A stretch of 62,996 bases of DNA, counting the filler, from Neolecta irregularis DAH-3 (Eukaryota), in the NCBI GenBank assembly GCA_001929475.1. It is 7 parts of 7 records of this genome, joined end to end, with 100 filler letters (N's around TTAATTAATTAA, not from the genome) between each part and the next. Parts side by side here need not be neighbours in the genome. Positions count along the whole stretch, not along the records: positions 1 to 19,510 come from LXFE01000358.1; 6 more parts are not named here. One strand, 5' to 3'. The notes beneath the pieces were generated by a model. That model saw nothing but the letters and a program-made list of their open reading frames with translations. It was not told where the DNA came from and ran no database searches. Of the stretch, positions 120 to 32,071 are shown one piece after another. A program made the translations under genes and the position numbers. Each line of letters begins with the position of its first letter. Within the stretch, counting starts at the first letter, position 1.

Positions 120-639
120 TTAAGCGCTCTTCTTAGCCTTGGCCAAGGCCTTCGAAATAACAGATCTCCGTTCTTTCTTCAACTTCATAACCTGAAATCG
201 TTCGAAATCCGAAAGTTGACGTCTCTTTTCACGGATTGCAAGTCTCTTGGCCCACGCAGTCGAGTTCCATTTATCTTCGACACCTGCTGCTTCCCATTTC
301 TTGGATACGACTCCAGCTCGGGCTCCTCGTGGAAATTTAGGAATCACGATTTGTGTGAGGGATATATTGTTGAAAGAAATTGCTTGACGGGGGACTCCGG
401 TCTTGGGACCATCGATTAATGCCTGTTCTTGTCAGATTTCCGGGTCCACCAAAAAATATCTGTACTCTCTTGTGATCGATGATTTCGACGATGGCAGCGA
501 GTTTTCCGGCAAAAGGTCCGACCGTTAGGAGAACGACTCGACCGACTTGAACGTATCGCTTGAAAGTGCTCTTCTATTTCATCCAGTTAGCATTCCAAGC
601 AGAATGAAAGAAGAAGTGTACTTCTTGTGTGGCCGACAT
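120..639 (-). CDS. RPL14: 60S ribosomal protein L14 (eL14), 2 introns
   Basis: Spliced reading [61 protein letters not shown] introns. Confidence 0.97.
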
Positions 640-698
640 TTGGTGGTAGGATTTACGAGGACTCTATGGGCGTTTGGTGGTGAGGTCTACGAAACTAC

Positions 699-739
699 CA
701 GTCACTCACAGCATAATTTCCAATTTAGGGAACCCTTAA
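699..739. promoter_or_regulatory. Possible ribosomal-protein promoter elements: Homol-D-like CAGTCACT (699-706) and Tbf1-like inverted pair TTAGGG-aa-CCCTTAA (725-739)
   Basis: Lies 60-100 bp upstream of the RPL14 ATG; 7/8 match to the S. pombe Homol D box CAGTCACA. Confidence 0.35.
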
Positions 740-831
740 TTTCTGATCCTTTGTTCATCCTTTCGACATCTCTCACTTCAACAATACTTTTCAACAGGTA
801 TGATTTCTTTTCACATTTTTTAAATTCCCTT

Positions 832-931
832 TAAATGATGAATAAATTTGCGTTCGAGAACTAATGACCTGGAAATCACGCCTGATTTCATAACAGGCTT
901 GGTAACATGCGACCGTTTATTCTCTGACTTT
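832..931 (+). ncRNA. Candidate intronic box C/D RNA, target unassigned
   Basis: Perfect C box ATGATGA 835-841 and D box CTGA 924-927 inside intron 1; extensive internal self-complementarity. Confidence 0.55.
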
Positions 932-1062
932 ATTGTCGCTTTTTACGATTGGGTTCAGAAATCGTGTTGATATCTTCTAGAAACTCACTATCTCTGAATA
1001 TACGGTGTTGATTTCGCCGCCCCCGAGGAGGCTTTTTGAGGGTATGTATCATTTTTCAAATT

Positions 1063-1133
1063 TTCCATTGATGAGACCCATCGCTCATGATTACTATGAT
1101 TATGTAATAATTATCACCAAGATCTCTGAGGAA
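1063..1133 (+). ncRNA. Box C/D snoRNA, U24/snR24-type guide
   Basis: C box TTGATGA 1068, D' ATGA 1087, C'-like ATGATTA 1096, D box CTGA 1126; terminal TTCC/GGAA stem; guide ATCACCAAGATCT complementary to conserved LSU rRNA AGAUCUUGGUGGU. Confidence 0.85.
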
Positions 1134-1838
1134 TTTCTACTCATAACATCTTTTTCAGCTGTTTTACTGACAGTGTATTAGGGCTTATTGATTTGCAAAG
1201 GTCAAGGGTCTGCCTTCTGTTCGGTAGTCTAGCTGTATATATTTATTGCGGTAAATTCATTACCTCGTCTTACTTTCCCTATCCACGACTCTACTATTAT
1301 AGAATTCATATCAATGAACAGACCATAACCTCTGGAGCGGGTCTTTGGACCTTTTGAAACAGCAGATGGCATTGCTTTTAAGCGGCTCATCTTGCATGAC
1401 CAGATTTGCAAAATTGTCATTCAGAAAAATTGTCAAGTAGAGACAGAGGTAGAAGCGGAGAAATGAAGTCTTGGCTTTTATTACGGAATTTTTCGCTAAC
1501 CGGGCTGGAGGGATGGCAGTTTGCATTGTGTGATTGGAAAGAACATTTGAGGCAGCTTTCATTATACATGCGGGGATGATCATTACTCATGTGGCGTTTG
1601 AACCCCACCTTGGCTCAGAACAACAGATTGTCAGAATTGCATCCTGCTCATAGTAAAACACTTGGCTTGCACCTTTATCTAATTAAACCCACGATTTGGA
1701 TCATTTTCAATCACTCTATGTATGCATATATGCTTGGGAAGGTCATTTATAATTCAAATGGAACGGCGTTATAGAGACATCACTCTCTCATATGTCACAG
1801 CCCTTATTTTAACTGTGAACCTAACAATAGAAACGGGC

Positions 1839-31237: not shown

Positions 31238-32071
31238 ATGTCTCTGCTCACGTTAGAAGCAGTATTGGGCTTTGTAAAGCCCGTCCCATGGGCTTTTCTG
31301 TGGGCCGGGGTGAAGCTATTCATTGCCCCAATGCCAAAGTGTTACACATTGAGATACTATCTAGACTTAGTAGTAGCAGCCGTTGTATATTCATTTCTTC
31401 CTCTTTCCTCAATTCAAAATTTAGCTCTCATGATACAAAGCTTCTCTTCCCGCTCTTTTCCTGTCAATAAACTTCAGCTCGATGTTTTGCCTCATCAGCT
31501 TTTCTCGATTTCCCTTGTCGTACCTGTGCTTCCAACTGTTGCAGACGCTCTTCCTGAGCAGTCTTCTAAGCTAACAATTCCTTCTCTTCGCGGCGGATGG
31601 GGTAGCGGTTCTGTAGGCATGTCGACCAGTAGCAACAGTCTGGTGGAGAGGCTGGAGAAGATGCTGGCGGTAATGGGCGGGGCAGCATCGAGGAGCTGTA
31701 AACCAATTACCGTTACTCATTTCCAGCAGCATGATCTCTTCCAGTGCAACTTCCCACCAGAGCCCTTGCCTTTGCCCTTACTCCCCACCAGATCCCAGTA
31801 TTTGTCTTTGCGTCAAGTGAAGTTGAGATGGCAACGTTTCATTAATATCCACCACAACACAATCGAATCACTCAATTATCATATTCAAAAACCTCCGCTA
31901 ATTTATCGAGAAACACCTAGACACCTCTATTCCAGGTCTTCCAGAGCCTTCAGATCCCTCAAATCATTCCGATCTCTCCCCCGAAAGAAACTCTCCCTCC
32001 CAGAACCCTCCCAGGACCCTTCCCGAACCCCGTCGGAAAATCAACCCCCCTCACCCAAGACTCCTTCGTAG
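31238..32071 (+). CDS. Intronless 277-aa orphan ORF (hydrophobic N-terminus, Pro/Ser-rich tail), possibly repeat-derived
   Basis: Long ORF with no known motif; shares short sequences with repeats at 54.2 and 56.1 kb. Confidence 0.4.
   Translation: MSLLTLEAVLGFVKPVPWAFLWAGVKLFIAPMPKCYTLRYYLDLVVAAVVYSFLPLSSIQNLALMIQSFSSRSFPVNKLQLDVLPHQLFSISLVVPVLPTVADALPEQSSKLTIPSLRGGWGSGSVGMSTSSNSLVERLEKMLAVMGGAASRSCKPITVTHFQQHDLFQCNFPPEPLPLPLLPTRSQYLSLRQVKLRWQRFINIHHNTIESLNYHIQKPPLIYRETPRHLYSRSSRAFRSLKSFRSLPRKKLSLPEPSQDPSRTPSENQPPSPKTPS

Follow-up and report, generated by a model that had tools for sequence, protein, structure and literature searches.

The window analysed here, a stretch of 62,996 nucleotides (filler included) of DNA from Neolecta irregularis DAH-3, carries close to its start the gene for ribosomal protein L14e (RPL14) on the minus strand and, on the opposite strand, two box C/D snoRNA homologs, one of the snR87/Afu_514 family and one of the U24/SNORD24 family, each enclosed in a putative intron of what appears to be a short non-coding host gene. 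The two transcription units would be read away from each other across a narrow gap, and the features of the locus are as follows, by position in the window.

120..639, minus strand: coding region of RPL14 (ribosomal protein L14e), from Pfam, translation and the spliced mRNA contig of a relative
639-622, 573-466 and 422-120, minus strand: RPL14 exons, from our own reading of the sequence
621-574 (48 nt) and 465-423 (43 nt), minus strand: RPL14 introns, both joints backed by the relative's mRNA contig
640..744, no strand assigned: divergent promoter region that RPL14 and the snoRNA host would share, from the sequence, the mRNA contig that runs to 662 and the layout of the related locus L096
699..705, plus strand: CAGTCAC, Homol-D core, 60-66 nt upstream of the RPL14 ATG
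725..730, plus strand: TTAGGG, Tbf1-like, with a near-inverted copy after it that extends to 740, from the sequence
745..797, plus strand: putative host exon 1, pyrimidine-rich and ATG-free, ending at the donor CAG/GTATGA
798..980, plus strand: putative intron 1, 183 nt, GTATGA...TAG, containing the snR87 homolog, from splice signals
830..934, plus strand: box C/D snoRNA of the snR87/Afu_514 family (RF01216, Infernal)
836-841, about 845-852 and 924-927, plus strand: C box, D' guide and D box of the snR87 homolog
981..1041, plus strand: putative host exon 2, 61 nt, ATG-free, from the sequence
1042..1181, plus strand: putative intron 2, 140 nt, GTATGT...TACTGAC...TAG, containing U24, from splice signals
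1063..1133, plus strand: box C/D snoRNA, U24/SNORD24 homolog (RF00069, full model 1-76)
1069-1074 and 1126-1129, plus strand: U24 C box TGATGA and D box CTGA
1063-1066 with 1130-1133, plus strand: U24 terminal stem TTCC/GGAA
1075..1086, plus strand: U24 D'-side element GACCCATCGCTC, between the C box and an AUGA D'-like box
1110..1125, plus strand: U24 D-box guide, 16 contiguous LSU pairs anchored on the D box
1166-1171 and 1181, plus strand: intron 2 branch site ACTGAC and acceptor TAG
1182..1313, plus strand: putative host exon 3, ATG-free up to 1313

The last exon of RPL14 matches PF01929 (Ribosomal_L14e) in Pfam over 123-422 with an E-value of 2.6e-33, and sequence and translation place the start codon at 639 on the minus strand. 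An RPL14 mRNA contig of a relative (RNA run X1) spans both intron joints and extends to 662. Because this mRNA reaches 662 and the first host donor lies at 798, both start sites must be confined to about 663-797, an intergenic gap of at most ~135 nt. The region at which the putative host opens, 745-798, lies 106-159 nt upstream of the RPL14 ATG on the opposite strand.

In an Infernal search of 801 nt the second snoRNA scores 40.7 bits against RF00069 (gathering 41, E 2.1e-5), and the first scores 36.8 bits against RF01216 (gathering 37, E 7.8e-5), with a weak match of 19.1 bits to the Afu_514 model, RF01515 (gathering 39). When the whole window is searched with 4227 Rfam families the E-values are 0.0016 for U24 and 0.0061 for the snR87 homolog, and only one other match, ranking below both, has an E-value of 1 or less. 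Both matches run the full length of their models, on the same strand and 130 nt apart. A default Rfam scan at gathering scores lists nothing, missing both snoRNAs because each match falls just under threshold, by 0.2-0.3 bits. On its sequence the first snoRNA, which the first-pass annotation had left unnamed, is a member of the snR87/Afu_514 family. Folding of both snoRNAs gave z-scores between -0.4 and -2.4, which is uninformative, as expected for box C/D RNAs.

Complementarity between the guides and rRNA was evaluated in five surrogate rDNAs from unidentified eukaryotes, retrieved with the LR7 LSU primer from viral and prokaryote-genome contig collections. From the viral contigs came 11 loci, of which two have short LSU fragments, and from the prokaryote genome contigs 53, many of which are eukaryotic rDNA present as contamination. 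Three of the seven loci scanned with Rfam (L057, L022 and L027) are eukaryotic rDNA, and L041 and L050 were taken as rDNA by their BLAST likeness to L057. The U24 D guide, whose D-box end CACCAAGATCT-CTGA is located at 1115-1129 on the plus strand, forms 16 contiguous pairs (14 Watson-Crick and two G-U) in all five of these surrogates, which stand in for the species' own rDNA. Counting from the D box, the fifth base (G1121) is paired to the C of AGATC, within a site that Rfam assigns to LSU rRNA. We take this target to be yeast Cm1437. The corresponding site is reported as 26S-Cm1418 for CD50, the U24 homolog of N. crassa (PMC2780460). For the snR87 homolog the D' guide forms eight Watson-Crick pairs (nine with one G-U) with SSU positions 437-444 of L057, and the same pairing is present in L041; this fits both the published snR87 target, 18S-A436 (PMC5824354), and the shortness that has been noted for the snR87 guide (PMC3116282).

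The putative exon and intron structure that surrounds these snoRNAs is consistent with a host transcript that is spliced and does not code for protein. On the plus strand between 667 and 1313 every ATG triplet falls within 798-980 or 1042-1181, so the putative exons are without a start codon. The exons have their first ATG at 1314, with a frame of four codons, and the frame of the next ATG downstream has 24 codons; by this reading of the sequence, which supports the view, a spliced host RNA would carry no ORF. The snoRNA-bearing intervals, at 183 and 140 nt, are three to four times longer than the introns of RPL14. Splice signals are fully in place around U24, with both a donor and a branch site plus AG, a combination seen in 1.1% of cases when 20,000 placements are drawn at random in the window (for a donor-like hexamer lying 15-65 nt upstream the figure is 11%, and it is again 11% for a branch site with an AG lying 40-80 nt downstream). 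Intron 1 has a donor and lacks a canonical branch site, and for this reason its acceptor is uncertain: it is taken as 980, or it may possibly be the AG at 958. The first-pass annotation had proposed, about 100-160 bp from the RPL14 ATG and on the opposite strand, two introns of these lengths, against 33-60 nt elsewhere, with GTATGA and GTATGT donors, ATG-free exons and a C..D box pair in each interval, the second belonging to U24. That description is borne out throughout: the boundaries were recovered at the same coordinates, the two C..D pairs correspond to the Rfam matches to snR87 and SNORD24, and the U24 identity of the second guide agrees with its 16-pair LSU duplex.

Two other fungi, each represented by a metagenome contig, retain this arrangement. 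In the locus L096, on its minus strand, an Afu_514 homolog at 489-593 scores 65.1 bits (RF01515, gathering 39) and is followed by U24 about 240 nt downstream; in the locus L092 the Afu_514 homolog, at 951-1057, scores 59.4 bits against the same model (gathering 39), and U24 comes next on that strand. L096 also has RPL14 in head-to-head orientation, on the opposite strand; tblastn aligns it at 46.6% over 88 aa, and its N-terminus shows a KOW motif. For each of the snoRNAs in these two loci a donor precedes the C box by 30-45 nt, and a branch site plus AG follows the D box at a distance of 60-70 nt, so that an snR87-type snoRNA followed by U24, together with the placement of the splice signals, is common to the window, L092 and L096. 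Across the three loci a donor is found 15-65 nt upstream of six of six snoRNAs, a count that is somewhat favoured, as the donor patterns GTCAGT and GTACAG were added after the loci had been seen, and a branch site plus AG is found 40-80 nt downstream of five of six, the exception being intron 1 of the window. On the D side the snR87 homologs are less uniform, in that L092 and L096 have a common sequence to which the D-side region of the window copy is unlike. In Pezizomycotina an extra 25S target has been predicted for snR87, upstream of the D box (PMC5824354); the best LSU duplex of the sequence common to L092 and L096 has nine pairs.

How widely the layout occurs was judged by scanning metagenome contigs for the U24 guide together with its D box, which gave at least 117 loci that reduce to at least 104 distinct 85-nt upstream sequences. 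No near relative of the window is present among the matches listed. A model (R1) built from the snR87 sequences of the window, L092 and L096 detected no further snR87 copy among the at least 117 loci listed, its sole other match being weak and partial (L089, E 0.016). Among the 99 U24-like loci listed, 77 have at least 500 nt of upstream sequence, and an snR87 homolog is present in only two of these; among the 58 listed with at least 1000 nt upstream, RPL14 is present in only one. The RPL14/snR87/U24 layout is therefore lineage-restricted and not general. A further instance can be assembled from the literature. Afu-514 was cloned 74 times from A. fumigatus as a 105-nt RNA, classed as an orphan and mapped as intergenic between Afu6g03830 and Afu6g03840 (PMC2377427), and two tables, independent of each other, list AFUA_6G03830 as ribosomal protein L14 (PMC6529585, PMC3569664). 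It follows from these entries that the neighbourhood seen in the window holds in A. fumigatus as well, and that the snoRNA is expressed there.

RNA data bear on the RPL14 side of the locus and on the first snoRNA. Run X1 was compared with positions 1-2400 at 80% likeness, and it shares 0.04 of sampled words; it covers the relative's spliced RPL14 mRNA and, through a 175-nt contig, the snR87 homolog, and it leaves the host exons and junctions uncovered, so that it provides evidence neither for nor against splicing of the host. The 175-nt contig, also from the relative, covers 845-944 with seven differences and then continues into unlike sequence; it could derive from an unspliced precursor or from DNA. 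This contig, running as it does from the snR87 homolog into its flank, is one of the observations that would suit a different view of the locus, modelled on the clusters of budding yeast and plants, in which the snoRNAs are not intronic at all and are cut from an unspliced dicistronic precursor by an endonuclease and exonucleases, the GT and AG signals being incidental. The missing canonical branch site of intron 1 and the lack of spliced host RNA in X1, a run that covers no host exon, point the same way. Such processing is nevertheless improbable here, given that donor and branch/acceptor signals lie at similar distances in all three loci despite diverged flanks, and that one snoRNA per intron of a non-coding host is described as the rule in N. 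crassa and S. pombe (PMC2780460, PMC4138321). It is also conceivable that the exons belong, as the 5' UTR, to a protein-coding gene further downstream, or encode a micropeptide, in which case the host would not be non-coding. The 3' end of the transcript is unmapped and the next plus-strand gene begins near 2393, both of which leave room for this idea, but the absence of ATG from the exons to 1313 and the shortness of the first two downstream frames make a coding host very improbable; judged by eye, moreover, the third exon of L092 is without a long open frame, and the sequence past it resembles the antisense of a coding region. An intronic origin of both snoRNAs, in a non-coding host, remains the preferred reading.

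The second guide of U24 calls for a similar weighing. The canonical U24 D' guide is absent from 1075-1086, where there is no complement to the neighbouring LSU site in any of the five surrogate rDNAs, and GACCCATCGCTC occupies its place, as had been observed earlier. The further claim of the first-pass annotation was that U24 here carries a re-assorted guide pair. If so, GACCCATCGCTC would work as a lineage-specific guide, directing methylation of a site that belongs to this species' rRNA or to an snRNA or tRNA and that the surrogate rDNAs lack. Its position is the one expected of a D' guide, the AUGA D'-like box that follows it lies at 1087-1090 with a UGAUUA C'-like box 6 nt beyond, part of the element is common to L092, and re-assorted U24 variants do exist, in that a different D' guide of 12 nt, together with a consensus CTGA box, is common to at least five distinct contigs. 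Against this, GACCCATCGCTC occurs in none of the 104 distinct U24-like sequences among the metagenome matches listed, of which 77 have the canonical second guide where the window has an unrelated-looking 12-mer; of the others listed, five share the different 12-nt D' guide, nine have a C box with another D' region, and 13, probably chance or coding matches, have no C box. Nor does either syntenic relative match it: substitutions and a 2-nt indel set it apart from the L092 sequence, and L096 is unlike it. Its best box-anchored duplex in the five rDNAs comprises ten pairs, two of them G-U, and is equalled or bettered by 35 of 100 shuffles. A conserved SSU site was considered as a target for GACCCATCGCTC, being its best ungapped match (10 of 12), and was judged a chance match on account of two central mismatches; an accessory-pairing role beside the U24 target was dropped, as only five pairs were seen by eye downstream of the target in L003. 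A functional re-assorted guide is therefore unlikely, and the claim of a novel guide pair is not upheld, the more so as loss of the U24 D' guide is already described, with its function residing on U24b (PMC2780460).

Comparison of the three loci points instead to decay. In five of five rDNAs L096 still forms eight Watson-Crick pairs with the canonical site, which lies 14 nt downstream from where the D-guide target starts; L092 and the window have no pairs of the canonical second guide at that site in the same five. The second guides of the window, L092 and L096 can thus be read, from their sequences, as a decay series, the remaining 8 bp in L096 fitting a stepwise loss, and GACCCATCGCTC is probably what is left, decayed and non-functional, of the canonical U24 D' guide. 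U24 (CD50) and U24b (CD51) are described as separate single-guide snoRNAs in N. crassa and S. pombe (PMC2780460), and since U24 of these species is likewise without the D' guide, its loss does not exclude the window U24 from the fungal single-guide form.

The gap between RPL14 and the host contains the Homol-D and Tbf1-like motifs to which co-regulation had been attributed, at 699-705 and 725-730. Their presence alone proves nothing, because both occur in the window at chance frequency (six CAGTCAC against 5.8 expected, and 23 TTAGGG against 24.6 expected). In the ribosomal protein genes of S. pombe, Homol-D is described as biased to within 100 bp of the ATG (PMC4138321), a bias that the position of CAGTCAC in the window fits; the gaps of L092 and L096 show different short motifs by eye. 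Co-regulation of the host with RPL14 is a reasonable inference from the geometry of the two genes and their conserved synteny.

Taken together, these observations make it likely that this is a short non-coding gene that hosts snoRNAs in the manner of UHG/GAS5, divergent from RPL14 and carrying an snR87 homolog and a single-guide U24 in its putative introns. The host would be transcribed divergently from RPL14 out of the gap of at most about 135 nt, and its primary transcript would be spliced, with the two introns debranched and trimmed to the cores protected within the snoRNPs. Intron 1 would release an snR87/Afu_514-family snoRNA of about 100 nt, whose short D' guide is predicted to target for 2'-O-methylation the SSU adenosine that corresponds to A436 of yeast 18S rRNA, and intron 2 would release a single-guide U24 of about 71 nt, whose D guide is predicted to guide methylation at the LSU cytidine that corresponds to Cm1418 of N. 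crassa 26S rRNA. On its D' side U24 would be left with a non-functional remnant, the second function being carried in N. crassa and S. pombe by U24b. A broader proposal is that the RPL14 and snR87-U24 host pair is an old, selectively kept regulatory unit and that, in addition, the D'-side element of U24 has been re-used for a non-rRNA target. The pair may be common to the lineage of the window and to the lineage or lineages of L092 and L096, whose snoRNAs match the Afu_514 model; even so, this combined proposal is put forward only tentatively and is rather doubtful as a whole.

The locus is a real, conserved and ordinary member of a well-described kind, and knowledge of how snoRNAs work is unchanged by it. 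What it does contribute is a pair of snoRNA genes, with a non-coding host, that go unlisted when the window is scanned with Rfam at default settings. Afu-514, published in 2008 as an intergenic orphan, gains a plausible context and target, as an snR87 homolog in a host beside RPL14. The U24 second guide is present in three states, from shortened to lost, which fit stepwise decay after its function moved to U24b. If the proposed arrangement is true, one bidirectional promoter of ~100 nt would dose a ribosomal protein and two rRNA-methylation guides together. The conserved divergent pairing of a ribosomal protein gene with a snoRNA host offers a compact natural test case for the co-regulation of ribosome components.

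Parallels with known systems can be drawn for each element of the locus. With U24/SNORD24 the window copy shares the C and D boxes, the terminal stem and a D guide to the LSU site AGAUCUUGGUGG, and the fifth-nucleotide rule falls on a C in this copy too. In budding yeast U24 sits in an intron of a protein-coding gene. Single-guide U24 in N. crassa (CD50) and S. pombe is described as having kept one of two ancestral functions, as has the window copy, whereas CD50 is listed as intergenic (PMC2780460) and the window U24 lies in an intron of a putative non-coding host. With snR87/Afu_514, the equivalent of human U16, the window copy shares the AAUUUGCG D' guide to the SSU site; it is placed with respect to U24 and RPL14 just as the Afu_514 homologs of L092 and L096 are, yet it fits the yeast-type model better than the Afu_514 model (36.8 versus 19.1 bits).

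At the level of the host, non-coding genes of the UHG/GAS5 type with one box C/D snoRNA per intron are described for N. crassa (PMC2780460), and in S. pombe such hosts are reported to start at one site and to carry a poly(A) tail (PMC4138321). The window shares short ORF-less exons with these fungal hosts, clusters I-V of N. crassa and I-VII of S. pombe in the same two sources, and likewise places one box C/D snoRNA in each putative intron; it differs from them in having only two snoRNAs. The portions of PMC2780460, PMC3596301, PMC4138321 and PMC5824354 available to us contain no mention of an snR87-U24 cluster or of a link to RPL14, which their supplements may list. Co-regulation of snoRNA and ribosomal protein genes has been described in Ascomycota, through Homol-D in fission yeasts and Tbf1 in Candida (PMC4138321), and the concept is the same in the window, where motifs of this kind lie in the gap between the two genes. 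In the Homol-D and Tbf1 systems, however, similar motifs stand at separate loci, whereas here one compact divergent promoter would serve both genes.

Among the matches listed in the metagenome scan, at least five distinct contigs (the loci L082, L094, L136, L143 and L148) combine the D-box guide of U24 with a 12-nt D' guide that differs from the canonical one and is common to all five; the D' box after it has the consensus sequence CTGA. Judged from its sequence, the form carried by these loci is a genuinely re-assorted and conserved variant of U24. No snR87/Afu_514 homolog was found adjoining it in any of the five, either with the Rfam families or with a model built from three snR87 sequences.

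A weak match to SCARNA7 lies on the minus strand of the window at 31817-31943 (21.3 bits against a gathering threshold of 65, E 0.47, in the Rfam scan of the whole window), and is probably due to chance. The 17-mer of the LSU primer LR7 is present in archaeal LSU rRNA as well; Rfam identifies one contig matched by it, L053, as an entire archaeal rRNA operon, and four others (L023, L036, L039 and L064), whose records are titled Nitrosopumilus or Nitrososphaerota, probably likewise contain archaeal LSU rRNA with this 17-mer.

Two loci, L092 and L096, share with the window the order of an snR87-type snoRNA followed by U24. In L092, positions 1373-1458 on the plus strand of the locus hold a 10-codon frame that opens with ATG; GTACGT comes next, and the contig then ends. 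The frame is divergent from the host gene and might represent exon 1 of RPL14, as judged on very little sequence. In L096, a pair resembling a C box and a D box (ATGATGA ... CTGA) lies at about 290-372 on the minus strand, within the putative exon 2 of the host gene; no Rfam family hits it with an E-value of 0.05 or less, and it could represent a third snoRNA, exonic or mis-delimited.

Within the D-side region of the window's snR87 homolog, positions 913-922 are complementary to a conserved site in LSU rRNA: by raw pair counts, they form 10 base pairs (two of them G-U) in the surrogate rDNAs L050, L022 and L027, and nine in L041. This complementarity may mark either a candidate second target or chance.

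The organism represented by the window is probably well removed from the lineage or lineages of L092 and L096, because its snR87 homolog scores higher with the yeast-type Rfam model than with Afu_514, the D-side sequence common to the L092 and L096 homologs is absent from it in the three-way alignment (window positions 828-936), and its RPL14 is only 46.6% identical to that of L096.
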